A DNA stretch of 61,000 bases from Clostridia bacterium (GTDB taxonomy: Bacteria; Bacillota; Clostridia; Oscillospirales; CAG-272), in contig JAFTIH010000023.1 in assembly GCA_017456985.1 (NCBI GenBank), positions 1-61,000 of the forward strand, given 5' to 3'. Under the pieces are notes generated by a model. That model worked only from the letters and a program-made list of their open reading frames with translations. It was not told the DNA's origin and made no database searches. Numbering within the stretch: position 1 is the stretch's first letter; the number at the start of each line of letters is the position of its first letter. A program made the position numbers and the translations under genes. Shown here piece by piece: positions 17,400-58,537 of this stretch.

Positions 17400-17438
17400 A
17401 GGGCAAGCGCAGTCAGCGTTTCCTACATAAAAAGAAAA

Positions 17439-17475
17439 GAGCAAATACGGTTTCCCGTATTTGCTCCTTTTTTTT
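17439..17475. terminator. Bidirectional intrinsic terminator between rsgA and the virion operon
   Basis: GAGCAAATACGG-TTTC-CCGTATTTGCTC with A-rich 5' flank and T-tract 3' flank. Confidence 0.85.
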
Positions 17476-17494: not shown

Positions 17495-18340
17495 CTATTC
17501 TTGGCACGCGTGTGCCGTTTGCTCCTTTAAGTATTCTTCAAGGAGCGCGCACTGCTCGGAAAGGAATTCCGCTTTGTCCTCCGTTGCGTGAAAGTAACCC
17601 GCGCGAAAGCCCTTGACGCCGCTTTGTAAGAGTGTGAAGAGCTTTAATAGGTACCCCACGATGGCGTCGGGCGAGGGGTTTAACAGGACCTCGCAGGCGA
17701 CGGAAACGGAGAGTGCGGCGAACAGTGCGAGCGGCAGAAGAAAGGAAAGGGTGCGGCGGTGGCGCTGCTTGTCGGGAGAGAGGGAGAGCGGCGCGTGGAA
17801 CGCCGCGGCGGGACGCTCTGCGAGCAGGGCGCGTGGGGAAAGCGTGATCGCTTTCATCCCGTCGAGCGCGCGCAAAGCGCGCGCCTCCCGTCTTGTGCGC
17901 TCTCGCTTTTCCTTGGCACGAATGGCGGTGAGCGCTTCTTCATCCAAAAAGTGCTCGTGTAAGAGCTCGCGGCGTCGGGCTGCCGTTTCCTTCTCGGAGT
18001 ACGCCCTACAAAACGCCGCAACGGATGCGCCCGAGCCGTGTGTGCTGACCGCCTCGAAGAGAGCTGTGCGTTTCGAGAGAAGGGTAGAGAAGCGCTCTTC
18101 CTTTTCCCCCTGCGCGCGGCCCGTTTCAAAGAGGGAAACGTAGATGACGTAGGAGGAGAAAAGAAGGAGAAAAAAGGAAAGGGAAAAATTGACCGTGCTG
18201 ACGAAGGAAAAGGAAAGGTCGGTAAAGAAGAGCGCCGAGAAGATCAGCACCGTTGCCGCCGCGACGACGAGTCCGAGGTAGGAGAGAAGACCGCGCAGGG
18301 CGGGCTTTTTGGTGACGGGGAGAAGCCATTCGTCCTTCAT
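17495..18340 (-). CDS. Hypothetical membrane protein (about 4 TM, large basic loop), last gene of virion operon
   Basis: Two N-terminal and one to two C-terminal hydrophobic segments; RBS AGGAGG. Confidence 0.7.
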   Translation of the reverse strand: MKDEWLLPVTKKPALRGLLSYLGLVVAAATVLIFSALFFTDLSFSFVSTVNFSLSFFLLLFSSYVIYVSLFETGRAQGEKEERFSTLLSKRTALFEAVSTHGSGASVAAFCRAYSEKETAARRRELLHEHFLDEEALTAIRAKEKRERTRREARALRALDGMKAITLSPRALLAERPAAAFHAPLSLSPDKQRHRRTLSFLLPLALFAALSVSVACEVLLNPSPDAIVGYLLKLFTLLQSGVKGFRAGYFHATEDKAEFLSEQCALLEEYLKEQTAHACQE

Positions 18341-18352
18341 ACGCGTGCCTCC

Positions 18353-18697
18353 TTACTCGGTGTTCCGCTCCGCTCGCGCGGCAAGGCGGAAGCACAGGGC
18401 TCCCGCAAGACTTGTGGGAAAGGAAATGAGTGCGATGACGCGCACCGAGGAAAGAATGGGTGCGCTCACCGTTAAGAAAAGCCACAAAAGAAACCAGACG
18501 AGCCAAGCGGAGGGAGTTTTTAAGCGCTCACGCAGAATGCGAAAGAGGGGAATTGCGGCGAGCGTGAGCAAAAGGAGGGCAAGAAGGGAGAGGGCGCTCT
18601 CTCCCCTCCCGAGCCAGAGCGGGAAATGCTCAACCGTGGCGACGGCGGGGGGCAGGATGCAAAGCAAAAGCCCGAGGGCACGGAACAGGTGCTTCAC
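18353..18697 (-). CDS. Small multi-TM protein (possibly holin-like)
   Basis: 114 aa, 3-4 hydrophobic segments, charged C-terminus; GTG start overlapping upstream stop. Confidence 0.6.
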   Translation of the reverse strand: MKHLFRALGLLLCILPPAVATVEHFPLWLGRGESALSLLALLLLTLAAIPLFRILRERLKTPSAWLVWFLLWLFLTVSAPILSSVRVIALISFPTSLAGALCFRLAARAERNTE

Positions 18698-19293
18698 GAG
18701 TGGGACCCTAACGTCTTTTTCAAGCGATAGTAGCTTTCCGCCATGCTGTCCTTTTGCGCCTGGGGCAGATTGACGGACGAAAGAAGCTCGTAAAACAGCT
18801 CCGTTTCGGTTGCAAGCACGGCGGCGGTGGCTTTGCGCTCCTTCTCACTCTCGGCAAGCGCCGCCTCGATGGTGGCAAGGCGCTCACCAAGGGATATGAG
18901 GGCGTCGCGGCTCTCGTGAACTGCTCCGAGAAGGGGGGCGGTCTGCGCCTTGACGTCGGTGAGCACCGCAGACGCCTCGCTCGTGAATTTTTCGGTTACC
19001 TCGCCCGTTTTTCCGAGAAGCGAGGCGAGGGCGGACAGTCCCGAGCGCACCAAGGGCAAAAGTCCCTTCTTGTAAAGAAACGCCACGAGCAGAGAGCCAA
19101 GGAGCGTTAAGGAGCCGAGGATGGTGTCCGCGTTCTCGGTGAAAAAGTCGGCAACGAGGGTGGTAAAGGGGGTGCTCTCTTCCATAGCTGCTCCGTCCTC
19201 GGGGACCGCGGCGTCCTCCGACGCAAGCACGGGTACGAGCAGAAGGAGTGCAAGCAAAAGAGAAAGCAAGGATAATGCGAGAATTTTTTTCAT
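18694..19293 (-). CDS. Signal-peptide/TM protein with C-terminal coiled coil
   Basis: RBS AGGAGG, start MKKILALSLLSLLLALLLLVPVLA; internal TM ILGSLTLLGSLLVAFLY; helical C-terminus. Confidence 0.7.
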   Translation of the reverse strand: MKKILALSLLSLLLALLLLVPVLASEDAAVPEDGAAMEESTPFTTLVADFFTENADTILGSLTLLGSLLVAFLYKKGLLPLVRSGLSALASLLGKTGEVTEKFTSEASAVLTDVKAQTAPLLGAVHESRDALISLGERLATIEAALAESEKERKATAAVLATETELFYELLSSVNLPQAQKDSMAESYYRLKKTLGSHS

Positions 19294-19309
19294 AAGTTCC
19301 TCCTGATTT

Positions 19310-19696
19310 TTAAGTAAAAAGTCTGCGGCTCTTTGCCGCGTTTTCAAGCATCGCGATGCGCTCGCGCAGGGCTTCCACCGTGCGAGTAAGCTCGCACAGG
19401 GCAAGATGCTCTTGCACGAGAAGCGCATCGGCGGGCAAGCCGACGGGCATCACGGCGGCGCCGTCGTAAAACAGGCTTTCCGCAGGAATGATGCGGTTCT
19501 CCGAGCGAAGCGCGATGCGGTTTTCGCCCTTGTGCAGGGCGGCGGGTGGCAGCGTCACCTTGCCGTGGCGGGCGATGAGGCGGCGTCCGTTGCAAAACAA
19601 GTCGTATCCTGTCGGCACCGAGATGACCGTAGGACGGCCGAGAGATTTTTCGCGCTCGGCGAAGAAGGCGTTTTTGCCATCGAAAAGAAGGGTCAC
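19310..19696 (-). CDS. Hypothetical protein (beta-rich, short C-terminal coiled coil)
   Basis: GTG start overlapping upstream stop (GTGA), preceded by GGAGAGGAG. Confidence 0.6.
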   Translation of the reverse strand: MTLLFDGKNAFFAEREKSLGRPTVISVPTGYDLFCNGRRLIARHGKVTLPPAALHKGENRIALRSENRIIPAESLFYDGAAVMPVGLPADALLVQEHLALCELTRTVEALRERIAMLENAAKSRRLFT

Positions 19697-19920
19697 TCGC
19701 TCATCTCCTCTCCGTAGATCTCGGCGCGTGCCGCCTTTTTGCACGCCTCGACAAAGTCGTAATACGTCCCGAAATTTTCGGGCTTTTCCTCCCGCCTGCG
19801 GAGCAGGGAAAGCTCCTCGGACAGGGAATACCGCTCGCGCACGAGGGCGTGGACACGGGCGGCGTAAAGAGCGTCAAGCGTGCCGTTCTTCTCGGCAAGC
19901 TTTTTTTGTGATTTCGTCAT
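19693..19920 (-). CDS. Small helical protein downstream of tail fibre (fibre chaperone-like)
   Basis: RBS AAGGAGG; motif VRERYSLSEELSLLR...YYDFVEACK, which I recall from small phage fibre-adjacent proteins. Confidence 0.6.
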   Translation of the reverse strand: MTKSQKKLAEKNGTLDALYAARVHALVRERYSLSEELSLLRRREEKPENFGTYYDFVEACKKAARAEIYGEEMSE

Positions 19921-19934
19921 ACAGACCTCCTTGC

Positions 19935-21986
19935 TCAAACGAGCTTCAATTGATATAAAAGGTTCACGACGGCGTTGCTGACCGCCTCGCCGTTCTCATC
20001 GACTACCTTGACGGTGTCCCCCTTTTCAAGGGGCAGATAGATCGCCGCTTCGCCGTTTTCCAAGAGGGCGGGAGGAAAGCTGTATTCCTCGTAAGGGAGC
20101 AAAAACGTCACGCAAAAGGGCTGTGCGGCAAGCAGCGCGCAAAGGGTCTCTTTCGTGGTGACGTTGGGACAGGCGAGCATCAGCCGTCCCTCCTCGTACC
20201 ATACGCGGCAGGGGATCGCATCCGTTTCGTCAAACTGAAAAAAGCCGCTGGTTTTTAACGCTTCGGGCTCCTCATCGATGGGAAGGGCAAAGACGCCCGC
20301 CGTGTCCGTTTCCTCCCACGCCTCCTCTCCGCAAAGGGAAAGGGTCTTAATGTAGTTTGCGTAGAAAAACGACTCGAAATCGTAATAATTCATGTCCTGT
20401 GCATCGAACACGTGGCCGTATCCGGGAAGAGAGGTGAGCGCATCGGGGAGGGGGATGCGGACGTCCTCGTGGCGAGGCATAAACACGCCGTCCCCGTTTT
20501 TTTCTTCTAACATCACGTTTTTAACGAGAAGCTTAACGCCCGTGCTTTGACTTGCCGTGCTTGCGGCATAGACGGTAAAGCTTGCGAGCGGGATGCTTGC
20601 AGAAAGGGTATAGACGGCGCGATTGTTCTCTTGCAGAGTGACGAAGGCGTCCTTTTCGCTTCCGTCCGCAAAAGACAGACGAATTAAAATACGTGACGCG
20701 CTGCGCTCGGCAAGGTGGTCAAAGCTCAAAACGTAATCTCCCACAGGCAAGGGCTCCTTTAAAGAAAGCGTGACTGCCGCCGTGCCGCTTGCTTGGGAAT
20801 CCCCCGTCCAACGGTTTTTTGCGCAGATCAGAAAGGCTCGTGCCGTGTGAATAGGACGCAAAAAGCTCGTCTTTTCGTGCGTTTCGGGAATGATGTAGGC
20901 GTTAAAGGAAAGCTGAAAGCGAAAATCCGAAAAGACGGTGTCGGCGGCGGCAGAAAACGAGAGCGTGGTTGCCATTTCTTCGTCAGCGGAGGCGATAGGC
21001 TTCAGCGTGCTTTTCGTTTTTCCCGTTTCAAGAGCAAACGTGAGGGATTCGGTGCCTTTTGAAAAGACGACCGAAATGCTGGGACTCTCGCCCGCACTCG
21101 TTACTTCGCCGCCAAGATAAAAGAGCTTTAAGGCGTAAGCAAGCATTTTGGCAGGGATATAAAGCGGGATCTCGACGCTCGCACCCGCCGCAAGGGTACC
21201 GTTTAAGACGAGGGAGCTCGTTTGTGCGTCGTAGGTGAGCGAGAGCCCGTCCGTCCCGGGAAACAAAAAGGGAAGCGCCGCCTCGGGCATCAGATTTTCG
21301 GCGCTTGCCGCCTTGGGCGGGTTGTGCCAGAGCGTACAAAGCATCGCGTTTCCGAGGCTGTTTTGGGGCGGTGTGATGGTGGCACCCGTGTGCTCCGTGT
21401 AGTCGTAATAGTAGATCGTGTCCTCCGCCGCACGCTCCAAGACGGAGACGCGCCTGGAAAAGGCGGCGGTGACGTCATCGACCTTCTTGCGAAGCACCTC
21501 CGCCAGCTCTGCAAGCAGATCCTTTTTATAAAAGATTAGGCGGTTATCCTTGCTGATGGACGCGGCGTAGATGCAATCCCCCTCTCCCACCGTTTCCACG
21601 GAAATGAGCTTAAGCGCATCCACGTCCTTTTCCAAAACCTCAAGGATCTCGGCAAGCGGACGCGCACCGTCGGGCGCAAAATACGTAGCAAGCGAGCCGT
21701 CGGCGACGTCGCGAAAGAGGTCTTCGAGAGAATGTCCCTCGAAAATGTGGGTAGCGATGAGCGAGGCAAAGCTCTCGCTCGCGCCCTTTTCCTCGAAAAG
21801 TCCCAAGGAATCCACGAGGTCGTTCAGGGCATCCGCAAGTAAGAGTGGAAGCGCGTCAAAGGCGGCGCGCAGCTCACTTGCTGAAAGCACCTCGCCCGAA
21901 TAGAGAGAGGGAAAGGAAGGACGCGAGGGCAGATTGCTGATGCGGCACGCTTCGATCTCCGAGGGTTTGATTTTATAAATAGGCAT
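19935..21986 (-). CDS. Putative tail fibre / receptor-binding protein
   Basis: Follows nozzle gene; helical N-terminal anchor (ISNLPSRP...LRAAFDALP), coiled coil, then beta-rich modules. Confidence 0.55.
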   Translation of the reverse strand: MPIYKIKPSEIEACRISNLPSRPSFPSLYSGEVLSASELRAAFDALPLLLADALNDLVDSLGLFEEKGASESFASLIATHIFEGHSLEDLFRDVADGSLATYFAPDGARPLAEILEVLEKDVDALKLISVETVGEGDCIYAASISKDNRLIFYKKDLLAELAEVLRKKVDDVTAAFSRRVSVLERAAEDTIYYYDYTEHTGATITPPQNSLGNAMLCTLWHNPPKAASAENLMPEAALPFLFPGTDGLSLTYDAQTSSLVLNGTLAAGASVEIPLYIPAKMLAYALKLFYLGGEVTSAGESPSISVVFSKGTESLTFALETGKTKSTLKPIASADEEMATTLSFSAAADTVFSDFRFQLSFNAYIIPETHEKTSFLRPIHTARAFLICAKNRWTGDSQASGTAAVTLSLKEPLPVGDYVLSFDHLAERSASRILIRLSFADGSEKDAFVTLQENNRAVYTLSASIPLASFTVYAASTASQSTGVKLLVKNVMLEEKNGDGVFMPRHEDVRIPLPDALTSLPGYGHVFDAQDMNYYDFESFFYANYIKTLSLCGEEAWEETDTAGVFALPIDEEPEALKTSGFFQFDETDAIPCRVWYEEGRLMLACPNVTTKETLCALLAAQPFCVTFLLPYEEYSFPPALLENGEAAIYLPLEKGDTVKVVDENGEAVSNAVVNLLYQLKLV

Positions 21987-22025
21987 AGTTTTTCCTTTCC
22001 GAGGCGGCTTTTGCCGCCTCTGTTT

Positions 22026-24950
22026 TTATGGCTTGATCCTTCCCGACGGGTAGAAGGAATAGGTGAGTGAAAAAATACCGAAGGGTGCGCGGTGAGCGCT
22101 CGACTCGAACAGGTATTGCTTATAGCACCAGCCGCGCTCACGCTCCCGAAGCGGGACGCTCGTAAAATCGTCCGTGGTGAAGGTGAAGGCGGAAAAGTCG
22201 GTGTCGGCGGCGTCGGCGGCACCCGGGGCGAGCGTATCGCACAAACGGAAGGGGTGGCGGTCGGTGCGCACGAGCACCGAGATCTTACCGCCCGCAAGGG
22301 TCTTGAGCTTGACCGTTGGACTGCGCGGGACGGTGTCCTTGGCGTATTGGGGCGCATCGCCGTCGTCCGTCGCAAGCGCGCACGCGCACCGATAGGGGTG
22401 TCCGTCAAAGGAGTAATAATAGCGGTGGATCTTTCCGCTTTGTGCGCGCTCCCCGATGGGCTTGACAAGGCACGCACAGTCGCCGTCGTGGTAAACGTCG
22501 GCAAAGATCAAGGCGTCGTAGCGGTCGTCGTGGCGCTCATAAAGCCGCTCGCGCGTGAGCATATCCTCGCTGAACAGGCGGGGGAGCATCTTGTTTAGCG
22601 CGCTGTAGGTGCCGTCCTCGTTCTTGAGGTAGCGAGGGGTGGGGGCACAGCGGTACAGCGCCTGTCCGCGCTTGTCGGTGTTGAAGCACCCAACGGCGCC
22701 CTCTGCCGTGCCGTAGTAGAGCGCGTGCTCGGTGGCGCAAAGCACCGTCGCAGGGAAGAAGGTACCGCCCTTGCGCTCGCCGTCCGTATCGACGGGATAG
22801 GAGCCCTCTGCTTCCTTGGAGTAATAGACCTGACCGCCTGTAAGCGTGAGGGAATACACGGGTCCCGCCGCCTCCTCGCCCACGCGCGGATGGATGCAAA
22901 GACCCTGCTCCGCCCCGCCCTCGGGAAGGTGTGCCGTATAGCGATATACGGGCACGTCCCCCGCATAGGAGCCGACACCCGAAAGCCGATACCATTCGTA
23001 TTCGGCGCTCCCGCCCGTAGCGGTGCGGCGCTTGGCGTTTCCGAGGTATATCCGACCGTTTGTCAGCAGATAAAAAATCCCCTCGAAAATTGCCGCCGAG
23101 GCGTTTGCCGTGTCCTCGTTTGCAAGATGCAGATCCACGGCACCCGAGCGGGGAAGCAAAATGCGGTCGTTTTCCGTATCGCCCGGCACGAGGGCAAAGA
23201 GCCCGCGCTTACCGAGAAAAAGGGCTTCTCCGTCGTAATGGAGCGCAAGATCTCCCGCAACGCCCACCCCGGGGAAGGATGACACGGTGGGATAGACGCG
23301 GGGGACGAGGTCGTTTCCGCCCGATGCGGGGGTATGGAAGAAGATCTCGCCCTCCCCGCCGCCGTGCGCCTTGCAAACGGCAAGCAGTCCGCCCGTCACG
23401 AGAAAGGCGCGGTTGGGAACGGCGCCCGTGCCGTCGTTGAAATAGTTGAAGCACCCGACGTAGAAGGGATTGTTAACGCCGCTGTCGTCGGGCGCCGAGA
23501 AAAAGACGGTGTTGGGGAACTTTTCGTTGCCCGTGAAGAAGACGCGCCCGTCGTATTTTCCCACGGTGCGACACCCGCAAAGGGCGTCCCGCCCCTCCGT
23601 GCCAAAGCCGCCGCCGATCTCGGAAAAACGGGTGGGGGAAACCGTCGCGCGCACGGTTAAGCGTTTTCCCTCCACAAGCGCGGGACTTGACACGAATAGC
23701 TCGACGTGGGTGACGAGCTCGTCCGTGCGCACCTCGCGGTAGCGGATGTAGCCGTCCTCGTAGGGAAGGAAGGATTGCGCAAGCACCGTCCCCCCGAGCG
23801 CGACCTCACAAAGCGAAAGACAGGGCTCGTACAGCGGATAGCGATAGACGGTCCCGCTGCTCTCAAACGGCTCTGCCGAGAAGACTACCTCGGCGCCCGC
23901 CGCCGCGGGATCGGCACCCTCTGCGAAGGTGATGGCGGCATACTCTTCCTCGGTGCCTCCAAAGCGCACCTCTGCGAGCGACTGGCAATAGGTGAAGGCA
24001 CCCTCGTCCACGTGGTTGAGCGCCCCCGCGCCAAGATAAAGCTGGGAGAGGGACAGACAACCGAAAAAGGCTTCCCTGCCGATGCCGTAGGTTTGAGAGG
24101 GGAGCGACAAGACCTTAAGGGCGCTGTCGCCGTAAAAGGCGCGCGGACCGATCAGGGTGACCGTTTCGGGGAGCGAGATGGAGAGAAGACCCATCATCCC
24201 CGCAAAGCCGTCCGTGGCGACTGCCGTCACCGTATAGCTTTCGGCGCCGATCTTGACGCTCGGGGGGACGGTGACCTTGCCCACGCCCCGATATTCCTTT
24301 GACATTCTCACAGTGCAGGTCTTTTCCTCCTCATTCAGTACCGAGAATAAAAGACCGTTTTCCGTGACGGCGCTCTCGTACGCGCCGTCGGCAGTGAAGG
24401 CGATGCGCACGGTGTTCGAGAGCAGATTGCGCTGCTCGTGCGGCACGCCGTTGAGGTAGGTTAAGGGCACGTAGGCGAGAGATTCGTTTTGATCAAGCGT
24501 TAAGAGCGTTCCGTCGCGCTCAATGCAAAGGTACCTGCCCCCGATCAGAAGGCAAAGCCGCTCGCCAAAGGAGAATGCGCAGCCCTTTTCCGCCTTTACG
24601 GTGACGTCGAGGGGCGCGACCGCCGCGAGCGTGAGGGGATAGTTGCGCAGCCGCTCGGGAAAGCGGAAGAGCCGCTCCCCTGCGTGGACGACGAGGTAGT
24701 CCTCGCCCCCGACGCGATGGCGGAAGATGCCGAGCACGGGCGCGCCGAAGCGGGCAAAGGAGCGAAAGCCGGGAAAGCTCTCGGTGGCAACGCCGTCGGT
24801 GGCGACGGGATCGCACCACATATTTTCAAGGAAAGCAAAGTGCTTTCGCGACACCTCCGAGGGGTCGGAGGAGAGGTCCACGCCGCGCAAGGCGGTATAG
24901 TAGCGGTGATAAATTTGGTTGCCGCTGAAAGAATATCGGCTCGTTTTCAT
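22026..24950 (-). CDS. Short-tail nozzle / head-stabilisation protein (P22 gp10 / T7 gp12-like) with BspA-type LRR insertion
   Basis: N-terminal LRGVDLSSDP...ENMW, beta-propeller-like repeats (YDGRVFFTG...VFFS), C-terminal QYLFES...PFGIFSLTYSF; position after adaptor. Confidence 0.6.
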   Translation of the reverse strand: MKTSRYSFSGNQIYHRYYTALRGVDLSSDPSEVSRKHFAFLENMWCDPVATDGVATESFPGFRSFARFGAPVLGIFRHRVGGEDYLVVHAGERLFRFPERLRNYPLTLAAVAPLDVTVKAEKGCAFSFGERLCLLIGGRYLCIERDGTLLTLDQNESLAYVPLTYLNGVPHEQRNLLSNTVRIAFTADGAYESAVTENGLLFSVLNEEEKTCTVRMSKEYRGVGKVTVPPSVKIGAESYTVTAVATDGFAGMMGLLSISLPETVTLIGPRAFYGDSALKVLSLPSQTYGIGREAFFGCLSLSQLYLGAGALNHVDEGAFTYCQSLAEVRFGGTEEEYAAITFAEGADPAAAGAEVVFSAEPFESSGTVYRYPLYEPCLSLCEVALGGTVLAQSFLPYEDGYIRYREVRTDELVTHVELFVSSPALVEGKRLTVRATVSPTRFSEIGGGFGTEGRDALCGCRTVGKYDGRVFFTGNEKFPNTVFFSAPDDSGVNNPFYVGCFNYFNDGTGAVPNRAFLVTGGLLAVCKAHGGGEGEIFFHTPASGGNDLVPRVYPTVSSFPGVGVAGDLALHYDGEALFLGKRGLFALVPGDTENDRILLPRSGAVDLHLANEDTANASAAIFEGIFYLLTNGRIYLGNAKRRTATGGSAEYEWYRLSGVGSYAGDVPVYRYTAHLPEGGAEQGLCIHPRVGEEAAGPVYSLTLTGGQVYYSKEAEGSYPVDTDGERKGGTFFPATVLCATEHALYYGTAEGAVGCFNTDKRGQALYRCAPTPRYLKNEDGTYSALNKMLPRLFSEDMLTRERLYERHDDRYDALIFADVYHDGDCACLVKPIGERAQSGKIHRYYYSFDGHPYRCACALATDDGDAPQYAKDTVPRSPTVKLKTLAGGKISVLVRTDRHPFRLCDTLAPGAADAADTDFSAFTFTTDDFTSVPLRERERGWCYKQYLFESSAHRAPFGIFSLTYSFYPSGRIKP

Positions 24951-25516
24951 CCTTTATCCCATCCGTTTCGTATCAGAATTGACGCACCGCCGTGGCGGTT
25001 AAGGCATCGCGAAAGCTCCTCCGCCTCGGTGTGGTAGAGCGAGAGGTAGTGGGTGGCAAGCTCCCCGCGGTCGTCGAGCCAAAGGTAGGACGCCACGAGC
25101 GGAGCAAGCAGGCTTTCCGCGTAAGGGGCAACGTCAAGCTCCTCGTCTAAGCAGTCCACCGAAAGCTGTCTTGGGCGGTGCAAATACCGTACCGTGAAGG
25201 CGCCCGCAAGCCCGCGCGCCAGGATGATGCGGCTCCCTTCCACACGGAAATCCCTGCCCTCGACGGGTCGGACGTCCTCCCCGAAGAGGACTTCTCGGGG
25301 AAACCCCGAGAAGTCCGAGACCAGCTCGGCAAGGTCAAAATCGGCGCTCCGCTTCCCGTCAACGACGGGAAGGGAGTACAGAGAAATGCGGGGAAAGCGT
25401 CTTGCGATACGGGAAAGAGAAAGATTTGCCGCACGGTAAAAATACGGCTCGTTATCTTCGAGTGTTCTGGCAAAGCCCATTTGCGCGACCGTGGTGTATA
25501 ATTCTTTTCCTGTCAT
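24947..25516 (-). CDS. Putative head-tail adaptor / tail tubular protein
   Basis: 189 aa directly after capsid gene; MTGKEL start, helix-beta-helix layout with LAPLVASYLWLDD. Confidence 0.55.
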   Translation of the reverse strand: MTGKELYTTVAQMGFARTLEDNEPYFYRAANLSLSRIARRFPRISLYSLPVVDGKRSADFDLAELVSDFSGFPREVLFGEDVRPVEGRDFRVEGSRIILARGLAGAFTVRYLHRPRQLSVDCLDEELDVAPYAESLLAPLVASYLWLDDRGELATHYLSLYHTEAEELSRCLNRHGGASILIRNGWDKG

Positions 25517-25529
25517 AGCGGCGCTTCCT

Positions 25530-26591
25530 TTACAGCTTGGTCGCGCCCTCTACCGTGCTCTCGGAATCTACCGCAAGCAGGATATGCTTGTAGGTACCGA
25601 AGCCCACGCCGAAGCGGCATCTGCCGTTCCAGATGTAGTTGCCCGTGTGGTTATCCACCCAGTTGGAAACGGTGAGGGGAACGCGGTTGAAGAACATATT
25701 GCCCGAGAGGTTCTTGTTCGCCTCGCTGGACATAATGAGCACACGGTCGTCCTCGCTCTGCCAGCCGGGCATCACGACGATGTTCCAATTGCCGTATTGC
25801 AGATTGATATCGTTGTAGCCGTTGCCGAGCGCGCCCTCCGAGCCGCATACCTTCTTGACGATAGCCTCCGCCATCGGGCGGTTGCCGGGCAGAATGATGG
25901 TGTCGGCAGTGTAGCCCAGGATCTCGCCGTTTTCGTCCTTCATATTGCGGATCTTGGCGGCAAGCTCACCGAGCGCTGCCTCAAAGGCGGCGGTGGAGGC
26001 GATGCGGGCGTCGCCCGTGCCGCTCTTAAAGACGTCGCCGAAGAAGTAGTTGCTCTGCGTGCCGTTTGCGCGTCTGCCGCCGTAGGTGTGGGCGGAGGAG
26101 AAGAGCGGCTCGCCGTCGGGTGCGGTCAAATCGAGCTTCGCCTTGGCGAATACGCCCTCCTTCTCGGTGCCGTGCGAAAGCGCGTACTCGCAGATCTTGT
26201 GCATCGTCTTGTAGTAGGCGCGGGTGAAGTTCTCCGCGCGGCGGCGGGCGTCGGCGGCGACGCCGTAGTTGGCGTCCTCCATCATCTGTGCGGTGATGGT
26301 GAACTCCTTCATAAACTGGATGTGCTCGATGAACTTGCGGTAGGTTTCCTCCACCGAGTCGTTTTCGGCACCTGCACCCTCCTCGGCGGCGGCAAAGACG
26401 CCAAATTCGTTCTGACCGACGATGGTCTCGCCGAACTTGGAAGAGCGCTCGACGTTGAAGAGCCAGTCACAGATGCCTCCGCGCTTGGTCTGCAAGTCGC
26501 TTTCGTGCTCAATGACCATCTTGATGGGGGTTTCAAGCTTACCGATGGCGGCGTTGGAGAAGCCGCTGTTTTCAGAATAAATGATCGACAT
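25530..26591 (-). CDS. Major capsid protein (HK97 fold, Mu gpT-like family)
   Basis: 353 aa after scaffold/decoration genes; FTITAQMMED, DGEPLFSSAH, ADTIILP, RFGVGFG. Confidence 0.85.
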   Translation of the reverse strand: MSIIYSENSGFSNAAIGKLETPIKMVIEHESDLQTKRGGICDWLFNVERSSKFGETIVGQNEFGVFAAAEEGAGAENDSVEETYRKFIEHIQFMKEFTITAQMMEDANYGVAADARRRAENFTRAYYKTMHKICEYALSHGTEKEGVFAKAKLDLTAPDGEPLFSSAHTYGGRRANGTQSNYFFGDVFKSGTGDARIASTAAFEAALGELAAKIRNMKDENGEILGYTADTIILPGNRPMAEAIVKKVCGSEGALGNGYNDINLQYGNWNIVVMPGWQSEDDRVLIMSSEANKNLSGNMFFNRVPLTVSNWVDNHTGNYIWNGRCRFGVGFGTYKHILLAVDSESTVEGATKL

Positions 26592-26617
26592 ATCGTGTTT
26601 CCTTTCTTACGTTGTTT

Positions 26618-27025
26618 TTAGTTTGCGAAGCGGACGGTGACGGTATCGCCTGCCGCCTTGGCGCCGTTTGCAGAAACGAGCTTTGCGCCGCGCTTGGAGG
26701 AGTCGGCGGCGGTTGCCGAGAGGGAAAGACCGTCGGATGCGACGAGATATTCCTTGCCCTCGACGAGCGTGGTAGCGGCGGCACCCAGCGGGACCTCAAA
26801 GACCATTTCGGGGAAAATGGGGGTGGCGAGGATCTCCTTGCCCTCCGAGTCCGCCAGCACGAGGTGCGTGGGGAGCGCGGTGGAGGAGGCACTCATTTTG
26901 GTGAGCGCACCGCCCGAGATGATAACGGGGGTACCGTACTTGACGGTGGCGGCAGAGGTGAGCGCGATGCGAGAGGGCTCGGGTACGCCCGTTCTGCCGT
27001 TTAAGATCTTTAAAAGATGAAACAT
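26618..27025 (-). CDS. Putative capsid decoration/cement protein
   Basis: 135 aa rich in small residues, beta-type, between scaffold and capsid genes. Confidence 0.55.
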   Translation of the reverse strand: MFHLLKILNGRTGVPEPSRIALTSAATVKYGTPVIISGGALTKMSASSTALPTHLVLADSEGKEILATPIFPEMVFEVPLGAAATTLVEGKEYLVASDGLSLSATAADSSKRGAKLVSANGAKAAGDTVTVRFAN

Positions 27026-27046
27026 AGCTTTTTTCCTTTCGTTCGT

Positions 27047-27559
27047 TTAATCGTTGTTTTTTTGTGTGACACGGCGGTACAGCGCGTTGATCTCGCTGTC
27101 CGAAAGACCGTAAAAGAGAGCGCGGGCATTTTTTAATTCGCTCGGTGCCAGCCCCTCGGGCGCCGCCTTTCCGCCGCGCGGTGCTACGGCGCGCAGATGG
27201 GCTCTGCCATCCGTGCGCGGAAAGCGGGGTGCGGCGGCGGCAAGTGCCTCCTTTACCGAAAGACCGAGGTCACGCAGCTCGGCAAAGCGCGCGGCAAAGG
27301 GCAATTCGCCCAAATGTGCGGCGGGCGCGTAGGCGGGGTCGAGGCGCTTGATCTCGGCAAGGTCCTCCTCCGCCATTTTCGCGTAATCAACGGGCGCCTC
27401 CTCGGCGGGAGGCTCGGTGGGTACGCTCTCGGCGTCCGCCGTCACGACGGGAGCGTCGGGTGCGGGCGCTTCCTCTGCGGGCGCGCCGTCAGTCGGTACG
27501 GCGTCGGCAGAGGGGGTGACTTCGTCAAGAGGGGTGTCCTCGGTAAACTCCGTGCTCAT
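27047..27559 (-). CDS. Putative capsid scaffolding protein
   Basis: Acidic Pro/Ala low-complexity N-terminus, helical core, C-terminal LSDSEINALYRRV helix; upstream of capsid. Confidence 0.6.
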   Translation of the reverse strand: MSTEFTEDTPLDEVTPSADAVPTDGAPAEEAPAPDAPVVTADAESVPTEPPAEEAPVDYAKMAEEDLAEIKRLDPAYAPAAHLGELPFAARFAELRDLGLSVKEALAAAAPRFPRTDGRAHLRAVAPRGGKAAPEGLAPSELKNARALFYGLSDSEINALYRRVTQKNND

Positions 27560-27702
27560 ACCGATTTCCTCTTGCCCGTGCGCAGATCGTCACCCTTGGT
27601 CACGGTTGCGCGGGGATCGCCCTTGCCGACCTGGCTCGGGGCTTCGATCTTGCCACCGCGATTGGTGGCGTAGGGGTTCTTGGTGGTTTTGATTTCCTTC
27701 AT
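27556..27702 (-). CDS. 48-aa basic hypothetical protein
   Basis: RBS AAGAAAGGAAA before ATG 27702; stop overlaps scaffold start (ATGA). Confidence 0.6.
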   Translation of the reverse strand: MKEIKTTKNPYATNRGGKIEAPSQVGKGDPRATVTKGDDLRTGKRKSV

Positions 27703-27745
27703 AGCGTTTCCTTTCTTGTTTTTGTTTTTTAGGGGGGCGCCCCTC

Positions 27746-28432
27746 TTAATAAAAGAGGTTTGCATCCATACCCGGAAATTTGTGTGAGCCGATGACGAAG
27801 GTGGAGATCTTCGCGATCTCGTCCGCCATCGCGGGGGACAGTCCTTGCAAAAGCGCGAACTTGTAGGCGTCCTCGTAGAGATAGCCTTGGGACACCGCCT
27901 GACTCGTCACGTACTTGCGGTAGCTGTCCGAGCCACGGTAGATCGTGATGGCTTGGTCCGCGATCCGATTCGCCGTCTCCTTGTCAAAGCCGCGTGCGGT
28001 GGTGAGGAAGGTGACGGCAGAGGTCTTGTCCGATATCTCGCGCTTTAAAAGCTCGTTTAGCGCCGCCGTTTCTGCGCTCGTGGTCTCTACGGGCTCCGAG
28101 GCGCTTTGCAAATAGGAAAGATATCCCTTTTGGTTTTCGATCTCCGTTTTCTTTTTGTTTGCAAGGGCGTTTTCCGTGGCGCGTGCGCGCTCCGTCAGGG
28201 CAACGGTGTTTAAGTAATCGCTGTAACCGCTCCCCGTAAGACCGCGCGCGGCAAGGCTTGACGCGCGCTCTCCGTATTCGGCGAGAGAGGCGGCGTAGCG
28301 GTTTTCGGCGGCGCGCTTGGCTTCGCCGTATTCCCGCTTGGCGTCCTTACCGTACAGTGATACCCAGCCCTCATAATCCGAGATCTTCTGGTTCTTGAGG
28401 TAGTCCTTGAGATAGCTCTGTAAGCTTGCCAT
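27746..28432 (-). CDS. Helical hypothetical protein, possible internal virion/ejection protein
   Basis: RBS AAGGAG before ATG 28432; Ala-rich helices with LAARGLTGSGYSDY motif. Confidence 0.5.
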   Translation of the reverse strand: MASLQSYLKDYLKNQKISDYEGWVSLYGKDAKREYGEAKRAAENRYAASLAEYGERASSLAARGLTGSGYSDYLNTVALTERARATENALANKKKTEIENQKGYLSYLQSASEPVETTSAETAALNELLKREISDKTSAVTFLTTARGFDKETANRIADQAITIYRGSDSYRKYVTSQAVSQGYLYEDAYKFALLQGLSPAMADEIAKISTFVIGSHKFPGMDANLFY

Positions 28433-30191
28433 ACGCATCTCCTTTCATTCGTTCTTCCTCCAAGCGGCCACGGAAATATTCGACGTTTTCCTTGGCGCCG
28501 GGGTAGTGTGCGCGCTCCTGACACAGCCAATAGTGCAAAAGCGTTGCGCTTTCCGCGGGGTTGCCAAGCGTTCCCGCGTTGAGGTTTTCGAGGTTTTTCT
28601 CCCACAAAAGCTCCCTCTGCTGCTCCACACAGCTCCCAAGGTCCACCGAAAACAGAAAATCGTCGTTGTACTCGTAGCGCCCCGTTTCGGGATGATAGAC
28701 GATAAAGTCGTAGCGGTTGAACAAGGCGTTCTTCTGTCTGCCGAAGGCGTCGCGATAGGAGATGGGACGGCATTCGTCCGCATACGCCAGATGGTACTCG
28801 AAGAGGATGCGATCCAACTCCGCGTAGGCGGTCTGCTTCATCTTGCGCTTGGACTCAAGCCTGCCCGCCGCCTGCTCCACGAGCAGCTTTTTGGCGTAGC
28901 CCGAGGTCGCGGAGCGATCCGACATGCCGAGATAGGTGTCCGAGATACCGAGAATGCGCTTGGCGTGCTCGTAAAGACGGTCGGATTGGGCGATGTCCTG
29001 CGCAATAGAGGGCGTGGTGTCTAACACACCGTAGCGCTCCTTTTCGTCCCCCGTGCGCAGCTTGATGATCTGTCCGAAGATGGAGTTGTCAAGCGTCAGC
29101 TCCGCGTCGTCGGGAAGAATGGGCGTGACGCCCGAGCGCATCAGCTTTTCAAGGATGCGGCTTTCGATCTTGTTGATCTGCTGTTGCTGGGGGCGGATGA
29201 ATTCGCAATCCGACTGCCCGTACAGCGACTTCTCCTCCGAGGTGTTCTTGCGGATGACGATGGGGAAGCGTCGGGGACGGTAATAGGGAACGTGGGTGGG
29301 GACGAGCTCTGCTCCCCGCAAATTCCCCTCCTCGTCGATATCGGGCGAGAGGGCGGGCAGGGTGCGTCCGTCGGTGAGCGGAAGGTCGTAGGAAAAGAAT
29401 TCCTCCTCCACGGACGAGAGGCTGAGTGCGGGACGAGCGCAAAGGCAAAGGCATTCGCGCTTGCCGCACTTTTTGCAAGTCATCTCCTTGCGGGCGTAGT
29501 AGTCCTCGTGGTCGAGAAGCACCGCGTCACCCGAGTAGGCAAAGGCGCAAACGCGCCCCTCTTCATCCCGCCAGAAGGCGAGGATAAGCTCCACAGTGTC
29601 AAGCTCGTCCCCCTCCTCACCCTCCTCGCGGAGCAGAGAAAGCGGAACGCCGTAGCGCCGTGCGACCTCCTCGGCGGAGGTGCTGAAGCGCAAGAAGCAA
29701 TATTGCATTTCCTCTACGTCATATACGCCCGGCTCGGGAACGAAATCCATCGGGGAGAGGCAAGAAAGCCGTACACCCCCGTGCGCGCCGTTCTTGTGAA
29801 TGGTGGAATCCCACTCGACAAACCACACGCTTCCGCCGTAAACGTAGGTGTAGCGCTCGTCGATGTCGTTGAGCTTTTCAAAGGGAAGCTCGCGGCGCAG
29901 CGCCGCACAAAGCCGCTCGATTGCCTTGGCACAGCGGTCGTTTTGCTCGGTATATTGCTTCGCCTCGGCGGCGGGTGTGGGGATGAGAGTGGAGACCTGC
30001 GACTCGATCAGCTCGTAGGTAATGTTGCGCACGACCGTGGCGTCACGGGTGGCGCCGTCCAGCGAACGGGAGCCCTTGTATTGAGCGCGGTGTCGCTCAA
30101 AGCGCTCGAAAAGCGCGCTGTGGCGGTCGCGGCTTTTTTGGTAAAGTGTCTTGAAATAGGCAAGACGGTCCTTGATGTTGGATAAATTCAT
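28371..30191 (-). CDS. Portal protein (large, P22-like size)
   Basis: 606 aa immediately after terL; NITYELIESQV, SLYGQSD, ILGISDTYLG...SGYAK; ATGA coupling. Confidence 0.85.
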   Translation of the reverse strand: MNLSNIKDRLAYFKTLYQKSRDRHSALFERFERHRAQYKGSRSLDGATRDATVVRNITYELIESQVSTLIPTPAAEAKQYTEQNDRCAKAIERLCAALRRELPFEKLNDIDERYTYVYGGSVWFVEWDSTIHKNGAHGGVRLSCLSPMDFVPEPGVYDVEEMQYCFLRFSTSAEEVARRYGVPLSLLREEGEEGDELDTVELILAFWRDEEGRVCAFAYSGDAVLLDHEDYYARKEMTCKKCGKRECLCLCARPALSLSSVEEEFFSYDLPLTDGRTLPALSPDIDEEGNLRGAELVPTHVPYYRPRRFPIVIRKNTSEEKSLYGQSDCEFIRPQQQQINKIESRILEKLMRSGVTPILPDDAELTLDNSIFGQIIKLRTGDEKERYGVLDTTPSIAQDIAQSDRLYEHAKRILGISDTYLGMSDRSATSGYAKKLLVEQAAGRLESKRKMKQTAYAELDRILFEYHLAYADECRPISYRDAFGRQKNALFNRYDFIVYHPETGRYEYNDDFLFSVDLGSCVEQQRELLWEKNLENLNAGTLGNPAESATLLHYWLCQERAHYPGAKENVEYFRGRLEEERMKGDAYGKLTELSQGLPQEPEDLGL

Positions 30192-31543
30192 AGAGGTTCT
30201 CCGTATTTTTCTTTAAGATAGCGCCGCTCCTCTGCCCCTGCGTTTCGGTAATCCTCCCACATATCCTCGCTCCAATAGCGTCGGCTCGTTGCCACCGCTG
30301 GGGTGGCGGGATGCGTAAAGGTGATGGCAAAGCCGCGAAGCGCGTCGGGTGCGTGTGTGATCGCGTGCGGCTCGCGTAGCGTGTCGCAAGGCGCCGCAGG
30401 GTCGATCAAAAGCATCGGCAGACAGCGGATGAGCTCGCGACAGTTGCGGAAGATTTTTAAACGCGGCGTACCGTCCGCTTTTTCCTTGAGCAGCTCCTTG
30501 ACGGCGAGCCAGCCCGCCTCGCGCTCGTTGGAGGATTTGGTGAAATGGACACCGTTCTCCGCAAAAAGGATGGCTTTGCTTTTTCCCGTTTCCTGGGAGC
30601 GGCTCCAAAGGTCGGGCGGTGCGAGCGTCGCATAGATAGTTTCCTTCCCGTTGTACGCGGCGATCGCCTTAGCGGCGTCCGAGATGATCAGATCGCTCTC
30701 GCACAGCTCACGATACACGTAGCTGTCCCCCTCGGGGGAGATGGCGATCCACAGACACGCAAGGCGGTCAAGCCCGTAGTCGATAGAACGGTAGCGCCGC
30801 CAGTGCTCGGGAATGGGAAAGGGGTCGCAGGTGTGCTTTTCCTCCGAAAATTCGTGAAAATACTGTCCTTCGAAAATGTTCCAATCACCGTACAGAAGGG
30901 CGCGCCGCTGGCTTTCGGGCAGGGCGCAAAGGCGCTTTTTGTAGTCGGGGTCGCCCGATGTGAGAAAATGGTTGTCGTCGATCTTCGAGGGGATGAACAG
31001 CCGCGTGTTTTCCCCCGCGGAAAAAACCGTTTCGGGCGGGGCGGGATCGATAAATCTCTCCTTGACCCATACGTGTCCGACACCGCCCGGGTTGGTCGAG
31101 GACTTGACCTGCTTTGGATATCCGCTCGTGCCGCGCAATCTGGATATCAGATAAATATATTGGAATTCCGTGAAGTGCGTCAGCTCATCAAATCGGATCA
31201 CGTCGTATTCCGCCGACTGATACTGGAATACGTCGTTTTCCGTGGCGCAATAGCCAAAGTCGATAAGACTTCCGTTCGTGAATTTCCCCGTATGCTGCGA
31301 GGCGTTGTAAGAGTAGATGTCCTTCGGGTACAGTCCGAGAGAAACGCGGATGAGCGATTTCTCAAGCTCGGCGTAGGTGCGGCGCAGGATCAACTGCTTG
31401 GAGCGGGGATAGCGCACAGCGTAGCGCAAGGCGTCTACGAGCTGTCCGTAGGATTTCCCGCCCCCCGCCGCACCGCCGAAAAGGACCTCCGTGGCGTCTG
31501 CCTTCAAAAAGGCAAGCTGTTTTTTCGTTACGGCGACAGTCAT
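30188..31543 (-). CDS. Terminase large subunit
   Basis: Walker A GGAAGGGKS, Walker B IRFDE, motif C STNPGG, nuclease SIDYG and HAPDALR; all intact. Confidence 0.95.
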   Translation of the reverse strand: MTVAVTKKQLAFLKADATEVLFGGAAGGGKSYGQLVDALRYAVRYPRSKQLILRRTYAELEKSLIRVSLGLYPKDIYSYNASQHTGKFTNGSLIDFGYCATENDVFQYQSAEYDVIRFDELTHFTEFQYIYLISRLRGTSGYPKQVKSSTNPGGVGHVWVKERFIDPAPPETVFSAGENTRLFIPSKIDDNHFLTSGDPDYKKRLCALPESQRRALLYGDWNIFEGQYFHEFSEEKHTCDPFPIPEHWRRYRSIDYGLDRLACLWIAISPEGDSYVYRELCESDLIISDAAKAIAAYNGKETIYATLAPPDLWSRSQETGKSKAILFAENGVHFTKSSNEREAGWLAVKELLKEKADGTPRLKIFRNCRELIRCLPMLLIDPAAPCDTLREPHAITHAPDALRGFAITFTHPATPAVATSRRYWSEDMWEDYRNAGAEERRYLKEKYGEPL

Positions 31544-31911
31544 ACGTCACCTCCTTTCTTCTCGTTTTCATCGGGTTCCTTTAAAAGGATCTCCACCGCA
31601 AAGGGGTCCTTCTCCTCGCGCACCTCGTCAAAGCCGAAGCGCGAGAGCAAAAGAAACTTGGCAAAGGAGCCGTCAAGGCGGCGGTGAAGCGCGCCGTCCG
31701 TGATGCGGTCGGCAAGGATCTCCTCGCACTCCGCATAGATCCTAGCGAAGGCGGAGCTTTTCTTGCATAGACCGCGAAGGGTCGCTCCCGTCATCCCCAC
31801 GGCGTTCGCGAAGCGGACAAAGGAGGGAAGATCCTCTTTGTATTCGCTCCCCTCGCATCCCGCGGTACGGAAGTAATGAAGCATTCTTTTTGCAAGCTCC
31901 TTGGTGCGCAC
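31540..31911 (-). CDS. Terminase small subunit (P22 gp3-like)
   Basis: RBS AAGGAG before GTG 31911; HTH-like PSFVRFANAVGMTGATL, then DGAL...FAKFLL..RFGF; stop overlaps terL start. Confidence 0.75.
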   Translation of the reverse strand: MRTKELAKRMLHYFRTAGCEGSEYKEDLPSFVRFANAVGMTGATLRGLCKKSSAFARIYAECEEILADRITDGALHRRLDGSFAKFLLLSRFGFDEVREEKDPFAVEILLKEPDENEKKGGDV

Positions 31912-32087
31912 GGCGCGTCTCCTTTCGTTCGTTTTTTTCTGTCGTCTCCCGACTACGCTATTATTGTAAAACAAAAGTAACTCCCGATGGGACCAAAAAA
32001 ACCCCCCTTTTTTTGACCCTATTTTGAGTAACGGCAAAAAATGGCAAAATTCGACCCCTTTTGCGGCGCAAAAAAAGCAGTCCGTTA

Positions 32088-32297
32088 GCGTAGTGCCCTT
32101 AAAGGCACTACGCAGCGATATAAATCCCTTGCGGGATTTGCGATATACGCGGTGGCGCGTGCGATATATCTTCGATGCGATATGCCCTTTCGGGCGTGAA
32201 GGGGATTTATATCATATCGCAACCGACCGTGGGGGAGGTTATATCGCATTTGAGCGCGAGCGAAAATATATCGCATTTGCGAAAGCAAATATATCGC
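32088..32297. repeat. Nested multi-hairpin repeat element (GCGATAT x4 then ATATCGC x4)
   Basis: GCGATAT at 32115, 32140, 32161, 32177; ATATCGC at 32214, 32241, 32268, 32291; small hairpins between; extra hairpin 32088-32113. Confidence 0.8.
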
Positions 32298-32335
32298 CGC
32301 AAAAAAGCTTATGTGTCCACAGAAGCAGTGCTTAC

Positions 32336-32380
32336 AAAGAAAAGAGGACAGAGAGTGTAAAAACATTCTCTGTCCTTTTC
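32336..32380. terminator. Terminator hairpin downstream of wecB
   Basis: AGGACAGAGAGTGT-AAAA-ACATTCTCTGTCCT with T-rich tails on both strands. Confidence 0.65.
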
Positions 32381-32453
32381 TTGTCGGTGGGTAGATCGTT
32401 CTATCAAATTTTAAAAACCGTCCTTAGGAGCACGTCTCAATCAGACTGCTTTT

Positions 32454-38984: not shown

Positions 38985-39014
38985 AAAAAAGCCGTGGAAT
39001 TTTCCACGGCTTTT
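38985..39014. terminator. Bidirectional terminator between guaB and the AraC gene
   Basis: AAAAAAGCCGTGGAA-TT-TTCCACGGCTTTT. Confidence 0.85.
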
Positions 39015-39834: not shown

Positions 39835-40008
39835 AAAGCTTCTCCTTATGGAAATATCTGCTTTCGTCCTTATTATATCAAGGAATTTGCGCTTTGTCAA
39901 GCAGGATGGAAGGGTGAATTTTTGGGTATTTTTGAGAACGAACGGGTGTTGCACATCTTTTTTATGCGTGCTATAATGAAGGAGAAGAAACGAAAACGGA
40001 GGGGCGAT

Positions 40009-57201: not shown

Positions 57202-57274
57202 GGGGCGCACCCCTTTCGGTGTAACCGAACAAAAGAAAAAACGCCGTGAAAGCACGGCAACCCCTATGCGAAAC

Positions 57275-57307
57275 AAAACGCACTCTGCGAGCGCAGAGTG
57301 CGTTTTT
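57275..57307. terminator. Bidirectional terminator
   Basis: AAAACGCACTCTGCG-AG-CGCAGAGTGCGTTTTT. Confidence 0.75.
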
Positions 57308-57312
57308 ATCGT

Positions 57313-57525: not shown

Positions 57526-57586
57526 CGTAGACCTCCGTTTTGCTCGTTTTTGAAAAAATGGAGAAAAATCTACTTTTATTATACCA

Positions 57587-57632
57587 AGTAAATAAATTTA
57601 CTATTGACATTAGTAAAGATTTGTACTATAAT
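57587..57632 (+). promoter_or_regulatory. Sigma-A promoter with inverted repeats flanking -35
   Basis: TTGACA(57604)-17bp-TATAAT(57627); TTTACTA-N7-TAGTAAA at 57597-57617; AGTAAAT-AA-ATTTACT at 57587-57602. Confidence 0.75.
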
Positions 57633-58522: not shown

Positions 58523-58537
58523 AAAGGAGAAAGTAAT

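Follow-up and report, generated by a model that had tools for sequence, protein, structure and literature searches.

A probably host-maintained, podovirus-type virion operon and candidate gene transfer agent in an uncultured genus of gut Clostridia

Contig JAFTIH010000023.1 (assembly GCA_017456985.1), from an uncultured Clostridia bacterium of the order Oscillospirales (lineage CAG-272), carries between the host genes rsgA and wecB an operon for phage virion proteins, hereafter the cluster, at positions 17495-31911. The stretch of DNA that was analysed, here called the window, comprises 61,000 nucleotides (positions 1 to 61,000 of the forward strand) and represents contig C17 of a 49-contig, 1.80 Mb assembly with a completeness of 93.6%. 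We conclude that the cluster is very probably a host-maintained virion operon of podovirus type. The wider statement, that it is a domesticated phage operon making a particle similar to a gene transfer agent (GTA) that would package and transfer host DNA, is held with a probability of roughly 60%, its part on GTA activity being read from gene content. Elements of this kind are already known from FpGTA of Faecalibacterium prausnitzii (2026), and the member in the present genus is not in print as far as the literature was searched: FpGTA is named only in PMC12946183, and no description of this genus's element was found. A preliminary description of the window had therefore overstated the rarity of the cluster, because a podovirus-like GTA of gut Clostridia is reported there.

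The cluster consists of sixteen open frames that follow one another on the minus strand over 14.4 kb in the order terS-terL-portal-g4-g5-g6-g7-capsid-g9-g10-g11-g12-g13-g14-g15-g16, where g4-g7 and g9-g16 are numbered cluster genes. Stop and start codons overlap by four bases at terS/terL, terL/portal, g5/g6, g9/g10, g11/g12 and g14/g15, and the frames, their order and the single operon agree with the preliminary description. Sequence families (Pfam, PHROG) name four of the products, namely the small terminase TerS, the large terminase TerL, the portal and the capsid protein, and nine of the sixteen frames are without a recognised family. In TerL, the Walker A (GAAGGGKS, residues 24-31) and Walker B (D119 E120) motifs are invariant in 23 sequences, as are 95 of the 451 positions overall, and the ATPase motifs are thus intact as had been claimed. 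Pfam and PHROG scans returned no integrase, repressor, recombination or replication family in any of the sixteen frames and no tail tube, sheath or tape measure family in the cluster; the preliminary description had likewise found none of the former genes between rsgA and wecB. Missing phage modules were also sought genome-wide: the whole assembly contains a single terL and one tyrosine recombinase, which lies on contig C3 and not on the contig of the cluster, and, at 93.6% completeness, no serine recombinase. The codon use of the cluster is host-like (49th percentile of 935 host open reading frames (ORFs)), and so is its G+C content at third codon positions (GC3), in line with the composition noted earlier. 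The most host-optimised gene of the cluster is that for the capsid, with a codon use at the 99th percentile of the same 935 ORFs and a GC3 of 0.84.

The cluster is present almost throughout the genus. A first draw of 36 genus genomes included 34 with TerL, at an identity of 64-77% and with no internal stop; the two without it are only 72% and 76% complete. Of the 213 species genomes available for the genus, 191 have the capsid gene, and among the high-quality ones the count is 68 of 74; one of about 150 capsid matches listed has an internal stop. Across the genus the core of the cluster is better conserved than housekeeping proteins, with identities of 64-77% for TerL and 67-94% for the capsid protein versus 47-58% for RsgA and 42-58% for PriA. 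The 80 named loci comprise 47 with the complete cluster in the same order, two in which the order is permuted and 31 that are truncated at contig ends. In the permuted order, seen in L058 and L059 and also in L061 and L015 (genome G013), all of one subclade, g6-capsid-g9-g10-g11-g14-g15 stand before terS-terL-portal, an arrangement that would result from a split of the operon into two pieces or from passage through a circle.

Comparison with host markers suggests, with good support, that the cluster is vertically inherited and co-diverges with its host. Trees were compared for 20 genomes, using TerL, portal and capsid on one side and PriA, Fmt, RsmB, RlmN and RsgA on the other, and rows without either set were excluded. 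The Mantel correlation was r = 0.45, a value reached in none of 5000 permutations, and quick maximum-likelihood trees had 9 of 17 splits in common; after label shuffles, the number in common averaged 0.12 and reached 3 at most. Relative to the nearest species (locus L029), cluster and flanking genes show similar synonymous divergence (dS), at 0.75-2.2 and 0.97-1.9, respectively. The ratio of nonsynonymous to synonymous divergence (dN/dS) is 0.07-0.47 for 15 cluster genes and 0.14-0.30 for the flanks; these ratios are rough, as dS is about 1 or more, and none is given for the fibre gene g11, where dS is saturated. The lowest values belong to the capsid (0.067), terL (0.10) and portal (0.17) genes, with terS, terL and portal all within 0.10-0.17, and the highest of the 15 to g7 (0.47). 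The expected signature of purifying selection is accordingly seen in all 15 cluster genes measured, as judged from these substitution ratios, and both the tree comparison and the dN/dS analysis proposed in the preliminary description came out in favour of a host-kept element.

The position of the cluster in the genome is less constant than its presence. The preliminary description had looked to close relatives for the cluster at the same locus, and this part stood only for the nearest species (L029, capsid 92% identical), in which the order is hom-rluD-symporter-wecB-cluster-rsgA-pknB, and in part for L031 and L032, which share the wecB side only. In 20 of 20 other genus genomes inspected, the priA...rsgA block is kept and is followed by neither the cluster nor wecB. 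However, the gene content after rsgA differs in nearly every genus genome, and the varied position of the cluster is therefore attributed to scrambled gene order rather than to a mobile element. About ten genomic contexts of the cluster were distinguished, each common to related loci, with the largest comprising about 26 loci. In the eight genus genomes whose flanks were examined, the whole terS-g16 cluster is directly abutted by homologues of genes that lie elsewhere in the present genome, and in none of the eight does an integrase stand beside it. The borders in the window also lack an att-like repeat, as stated earlier, since the longest word common to both is 11 bases and shuffles reach 12. 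An assembly chimera at either boundary, a concern raised in the preliminary description, did not materialise: both junctions are spanned by contigs of run X3, which comes from another study, and the rsgA side is spanned by run X2 as well, from the study that may be the source of the assembly, so the cluster at this locus is not an assembly chimera.

The type of tail is given by the predicted folds of two proteins, which also bear out the labels 'adaptor' and 'nozzle' used in the preliminary description. The AlphaFold2 model of g9 (24947..25516, minus strand, 189 amino acids (aa); predicted local distance difference test (pLDDT) 89.9) matches in Foldseek, with a probability of 1.00, the podovirus-type head-to-tail adaptors of N4, KHP30, SU10, Pa223 (template-modelling score 0.64) and GP4. 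The model of g10 (22026..24950, minus strand, 974 aa; pLDDT 84.7) matches tail nozzles, among them those of cyanophage A4 (1e-19), SU10, T7 (gp12, 3e-13) and P22 (gp10, 3e-10). A BspA-type leucine-rich repeat is inserted into g10 at about residues 190-370 (LRR_5, 2.5e-12), and a PDB profile search with g10 returns leucine-rich-repeat proteins only. These predicted folds, which match those in the tails of T7, P22 and N4, confirm a podovirus-type short tail, and they agree with the earlier proposal of a P22/T7-like particle free of tube, sheath and tape measure. The T7 gene order capsid-adaptor-nozzle-fibre is likewise the same as in the cluster. In contrast, sequence identity to the tail proteins of T7, P22 and N4 is just 6-17%, the nozzle of the cluster has the leucine-rich-repeat insert, and internal core proteins are not recognisable in the cluster.

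Two members of the genus, G004 and G036, contain second, diverged copies of the cluster that are real temperate prophages and served as a control. In G004, a part with terS-terL-portal (L156, contig C44; terL 64%) is preceded upstream by RecT, SSB, a primase zinc finger, a DUF927 helicase with a Cch helix-turn-helix (HTH) domain and HTH proteins, and the remainder (L155, contig C26; capsid about 51%) follows a polyvalent protein of 932 or more aa. The copy in G036 (L157, contig C28) is accompanied by an integrase, an ImmA-type peptidase and a polyvalent protein of 3187 aa. The polyvalent proteins contain LPD38 and LPD3 domains and are sited after the portal region. Prophages and cluster share the order g5-g6-g7-capsid-g9-g10-g11-g14-g15-g16, and identities amount to 64-66% for TerL, 47-48% for the portal and about 51% for the capsid protein. 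The difference lies in the RecT/SSB/primase/DUF927 helicase or integrase/ImmA modules and the giant polyvalent protein, none of which occurs in the cluster of the window. True temperate phages of this lineage are thus present in the genus, and their early genes are detected by the tools used; the widespread cluster is without exactly those genes. The features of a functional temperate prophage, i.e. an adjacent integrase, immunity and replication modules and att repeats, were not found at the cluster.

Several known elements can be compared with the cluster. FpGTA of F. prausnitzii (Borodovich et al., Nat Commun 2026) is described as podovirus-like and, among GTA-like elements, as the first of this type; its operon I (ten ORFs, 10.5 kb) encodes terS, terL, portal, scaffold, capsid and others, and its operon II (5.5 kb), located about 125 kb from operon I, encodes baseplate, fibre, receptor-binding protein, holin and endolysin (PMC12946183). 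The particles measure 40 nm and contain 8.4-8.9 kb of host DNA, and GTA-like packaging in Oscillospiraceae and Christensenellaceae is also reported (PMC12946183). FpGTA, as described there, and the cluster are alike in being virion-only, most likely podovirus-like and nearly ubiquitous in their host genus, in starting with terS-terL followed by portal, scaffold (putative in the cluster) and capsid, in having no replication genes and in belonging to Gram-positive gut anaerobes. Operon I is also close in size to the stretch from terS to the nozzle gene, which contains ten ORFs in 10.0 kb. On the other hand, FpGTA is split into two operons, with holin and endolysin in the second, whereas the cluster is one sixteen-gene operon with no recognisable endolysin, and the number of genes lying between portal and capsid is one in FpGTA (by accession numbers) versus four in the cluster. 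The gene order of FpGTA was taken from the list and accession numbers in the paper, and the comparison is one of description and gene order rather than of protein sequence. Among the best 120 capsid homologues, all at least 80% identical, none is named Faecalibacterium, as they are either unnamed or assigned to uncultured Clostridia, Oscillospiraceae or Ruminococcaceae; in a representative search that returned 10 clusters, the only organism name was 'Clostridia bacterium', again with no Faecalibacterium. The relatives of a capsid from G421 (Enterenecus, Pseudoflavonifractor) also include none named Faecalibacterium, and many of the contigs concerned are about 44 kb long, which marks this capsid as that of a true phage.

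A second candidate from a gut Clostridia bin, in Coprocola, is a cluster of about 14 kb with terminase and structural genes that was proposed as a GTA from virus-like-particle coverage (10.64898/2026.07.08.737213). It resembles the present cluster in size and in its combination of small and large terminase with structural genes. It differs in that its contig also carries holin and endolysin genes, in a separate cluster of 3.6 kb, and in that it belongs to another family. The alphaproteobacterial GTAs, represented by RcGTA of Rhodobacter capsulatus, also encode head and tail in a cluster of about 15 kb that contains no replication genes, co-evolves with its host and shows host-like, translation-optimised codon use. 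No sequence relation between RcGTA and the cluster was seen, and the RcGTA neck (6toa) appears just at rank 38 (E 0.13) in the Foldseek search with g9. RcGTA is siphovirus-like, with a tape measure, a tail tube and further loci, unlike the cluster. Capsid-forming phage satellites (cf-PICIs) have an integrase and replication genes and depend on the tails of a helper. Such a satellite was rejected as an identity for the cluster, which has no integrase or replication genes and encodes its own adaptor, nozzle and fibre.

Elsewhere in the order, a different operon of ten ORFs was found. The capsid type of the cluster is rare in the order as a whole (28 of 401 genomes; 3 of 25 in its own family), and four genomes of other families with TerL identities of 46-60% carry instead an operon of the order terS-terL-portal-scaffold-small capsid-...-nozzle. 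The loci concerned are L109, L148, L150, L151 and L154, of which L109 is MT836592.1, a 'Bacteriophage sp.' scaffold that was obtained from a human faecal virome and is 9,588 bases long. The capsid of the ten-ORF type was found in 133 of the 401 genomes of the order, with two families reaching 26 of 26 each, and in 0 of 2 genomes of the present genus. The named relatives of the MT836592.1 capsid are Acidaminobacterium and uncultured bins, none of them named Faecalibacterium. Both operons share the gene order, a PF25209 capsid, TerL (48% identical in L109) and the nozzle, which in the ten-ORF operon is a 642 aa protein homologous to g10. They differ in that the ten-ORF capsid is about 275-285 aa long and without tblastn similarity to that of the cluster, the nozzle contains no leucine-rich repeat and g12-g16 are missing. 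In the complete genome G045, the ten-ORF operon lies between host genes (rlmA, a chemoreceptor gene and trp genes) and is preceded (L151:17649-19883) by genes for a small HTH protein and a sigma-70-family protein and by a divergent XRE and ImmA/IrrE pair, unlike the cluster in the window. This upstream switch resembles the Xre/Xpf control of PBSX. The ten-ORF operon may be a second, older domesticated element, perhaps of the FpGTA type.

Taken together, the virion-only content, the near-universal presence, the co-divergence with the host and the purifying selection support the GTA reading that the preliminary description had put forward, while the packaging of chromosomal DNA, the other part of that claim, is still a deduction. 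The ancestor would have been a temperate short-tailed (T7/P22-like) phage lineage, which may have shed its functions for integration, immunity and replication, together with the giant polyvalent protein that is ejected, and would then have been passed on vertically within the host. TerS and TerL would package DNA by the headful into a capsid that bears the portal; adaptor, leucine-rich-repeat nozzle and fibre would close the capsid and form a short, cell-binding tail; and the three terminal membrane proteins (g14-g16) could serve release or DNA ejection. Because genes for replication and excision are missing from the operon, the packaged DNA would be mostly chromosomal, as in a GTA-like particle, and the hypervariability of the fibre is as expected of a particle that still has to attach to cells. 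Tentatively, and with rather more doubt than conviction, we propose that the cluster reflects a separate, genus-wide (about 190 species) domestication, in which a temperate T7-like podophage became a single-operon GTA with a leucine-rich-repeat nozzle and replaced the older ten-gene element, while its prophage cousins still infect the same genus. If so, cluster and prophages would form a natural before-and-after pair for the conversion of a phage into a host organelle, as the living prophage relatives show what was lost, i.e. integration, immunity, replication and the polyvalent ejected protein. GTAs outside the Alphaproteobacteria are few and the first one from the gut was published in 2026; the genus studied here adds a well-supported genomic case from animal and human guts, with 213 species genomes for comparison. 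Should host DNA be packaged in the particles, these could rank among the main routes by which genes flow within this group and would account for part of the bacterial DNA in gut viromes.

Several observations weigh against such a particle. Family scans of the sixteen frames gave no match to a lysin or endolysin domain, in agreement with the preliminary description and in contrast to operon II of FpGTA. No regulator was found in or beside the cluster at this locus. A capsid match is missing in 6 of the 74 high-quality genomes, and of the five checked, one has terL at 68% identity, three have only a terL of 44-47% and one has none. The cluster occupies different loci in different subclades, and the genus genomes are all metagenome bins. 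In the tree comparison, G016 joins one clade in the cluster tree only, with a support of 99. A group of this genome (G000), G004 and G013 is likewise confined to the cluster tree; this clade is weakly rejected by the marker data (approximately unbiased (AU) test, p = 0.035, for a group named post hoc), and the host-tree position of this genome is not rejected by the cluster data (AU p = 0.27). The head may hold more than 14.4 kb, because the capsid protein is as long (353 aa) as that of the prophage relatives (349 aa), so that the particle might be able to carry its own genes. Finally, FpGTA is documented by particles, proteomics and packaged DNA, whereas the cluster is known here from its genes alone; the 21 sequencing runs listed, 19 of them with the sequence, are all on record as DNA metagenomes.

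These points have to be considered together with other explanations for a conserved virion operon. A domesticated and host-kept operon could serve a task other than gene transfer, e.g. PBSX-like killing of competitors or the transport of a non-random cargo, which we regard as unlikely. The authors of the FpGTA study left DNA delivery versus PBSX-like action undecided for their own element (PMC12946183). In the cluster, all of the conservation evidence would fit another task equally well, and the leucine-rich-repeat nozzle, like the hypervariable fibre, shows that cell binding is under selection, as it would have to be in a killer particle too. However, the intact terS, terL and portal genes, with their low dN/dS, indicate that DNA packaging matters; the cluster contains no sheath, tube or tape-measure gene; and we know of no killing action of a short, non-contractile tail. 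Less probable still is that the cluster represents the structural half of an active mobile system, either a split phage with its early genes elsewhere or a resident helper that supplies capsids to other elements. True prophages with homologous terL and portal genes do circulate in the genus, some genus genomes have two capsid matches, and the permuted order in L058, L059 and L061 is as after circularisation; yet the present assembly offers only one terL and a single recombinase, the cluster tree follows the host tree, and core-like genes abut the cluster in all eight genomes examined.

It is highly improbable, and already disfavoured by the data, that the cluster does nothing for the host and is either the inert remnant of a prophage or a common prophage that inserts at many sites. 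The scatter of the cluster over different loci in the subclades and its absence from several high-quality genomes could be explained in this way, but all sixteen frames are intact here, 15 of them under constraint at a dS of about 1 or more, the cluster is present in 191 of 213 species, and no integrase adjoins it in any of the eight genomes examined. Also against this reading, the gene order after rsgA is scrambled in general and the cluster tree matches that of the host.

The remaining features of the cluster, all on the minus strand, are described in the direction of transcription. The probable start of terS (31540..31911) is a GTG at 31911 that stands behind AAGGAG and yields a product of 123 aa; the open frame extends to a TTG at 32037, and relatives align from about residue 45 of this long frame. 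TerS matches phrog_3064 (7e-6) and, weakly and below the cut-off, PF16677. terL (30188..31543, 451 aa) starts within the stop of terS, with which it shares four bases, and matches PF03237 (1e-11) and phrog_979 (1e-49). The portal gene (28371..30191, 606 aa) matches phrog_156 (4e-33), and portal identity across the genus is 44-77%. The next gene, g4 (27746..28438, 230 aa), is fast-evolving, belongs to no known family and was detected in 29 of 80 related loci. g5 (27556..27702) encodes a small basic protein of 48 aa from an inner ATG, in a frame open to 27765, with a net charge of +13 and homologues of 40-79 aa in 54 of the 80 loci. It is followed by g6 (27047..27559, 170 aa), which is acidic (net charge -14), without a family match, present in 79 of the 80 loci and, by its position, a putative scaffold. 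g7 (26618..27025, 135 aa), at first labelled a putative 'decoration' protein, matches phrog_24113 (5e-13), a family of unknown function. The major capsid protein (25530..26591, 353 aa) matches phrog_371 weakly, and its assignment is backed by PF25209 as precomputed on close relatives and by agreement of the ESM Atlas (PF25209/Mu gpT-like capsids).

Downstream of the nozzle gene, g11 (19935..21986, 683 aa) is without a family match and is regarded as a putative fibre or receptor-binding protein from its position and conservation pattern: about 125 aa at the N-terminus are conserved and the remainder is hypervariable, such that most relatives align at the N-terminus only and identity to the nearest species is just 28%. 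Two small genes are lineage-specific, namely g12 (19693..19938, 81 aa; 7 of 80 loci; dN/dS 0.19 versus L029) and g13 (19310..19744, 144 aa, basic; 5 of 80 loci; dN/dS 0.24 versus L029). The three last products are predicted membrane proteins. g14 (18694..19293) is predicted to be membrane-anchored, with about 199 aa from an inner ATG in a frame open to 19428, hydrophobic segments at residues 49-67 and 100-118 of the long frame and relatives of 191-269 aa, and it occurs in 53 of the 80 loci. g15 (18353..18697, 114 aa; 55 of 80 loci) has three to four predicted membrane segments and no family match, and it appears holin-like in size and shape. g16 (17495..18340, 281 aa; 43 of 80 loci) has three hydrophobic segments; family and profile searches gave neither a family nor a solved relative, and an Atlas match of 0.89 to viral hypothetical proteins is a lead only. 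In the Pfam and PHROG scans, g4, g5 and g12-g16 had no match, and a sequence and profile search of solved structures found no relative for g7, g9, g16, the capsid protein or the portal.

In the window, the cluster is flanked on the rsgA side by priA-fmt-rsmB-rlmN-PP2C-pknB-rsgA and on the terS side by wecB, an alanine symporter gene, rluD and hom. A two-way terminator-like hairpin (17435..17470) lies between the convergent rsgA and g16; it forms 16 pairs on the minus strand and 12 on the plus strand, with a run of T after both. In the rsgA regions of 20 genus genomes (L112-L131), PP2C phosphatase and/or PknB kinase were found between rlmN and rsgA in only 6 of 19 with a detected rlmN (tblastn, E 1e-8), and the window has both. 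Upstream of terS, 10 ORFs of 6 genomes were scanned for a conserved small regulator: an XRE-type protein and a DprA/SLOG-like fragment came from G010, another three ORFs were ordinary enzymes or unknown proteins, and the remaining five had no match. In G010 (L022:14199-14925), a gene for a 100 aa XRE-type HTH protein stands just upstream of terS on the strand of the operon and is overlapped by a 162 aa frame with the DprA/SLOG-like match (36 bits).

Between wecB and terS, outside the operon, lies a 359-base repeat element (32081..32439) with a hairpin and eight copies of GCGATAT, four of them inverted relative to the other four; these are 8 of the 16 GCGATAT sites in the window. The X3 contig skips this interval and has four other letters in its place, many loose ends occur there, and depth in four metagenomes is about 4-12 times that of neighbouring bins. 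The element looks like a small mobile repeat, similar to a miniature inverted-repeat transposable element. The GCGATAT array was considered as an operator of the operon and rejected, as it is found upstream of terS in 0 of 58 relatives, is skipped by the X3 contig and has a many-fold depth. Smaller GCGATAT clusters occur in the same genome at C27:9500-9708 and C32:35686-35738. Two further stretches of the window, 57001-60000 and 39001-40000, have a GC content of 0.44-0.47 versus about 0.6 elsewhere and may be foreign DNA; the latter contains an AraC-family regulator.

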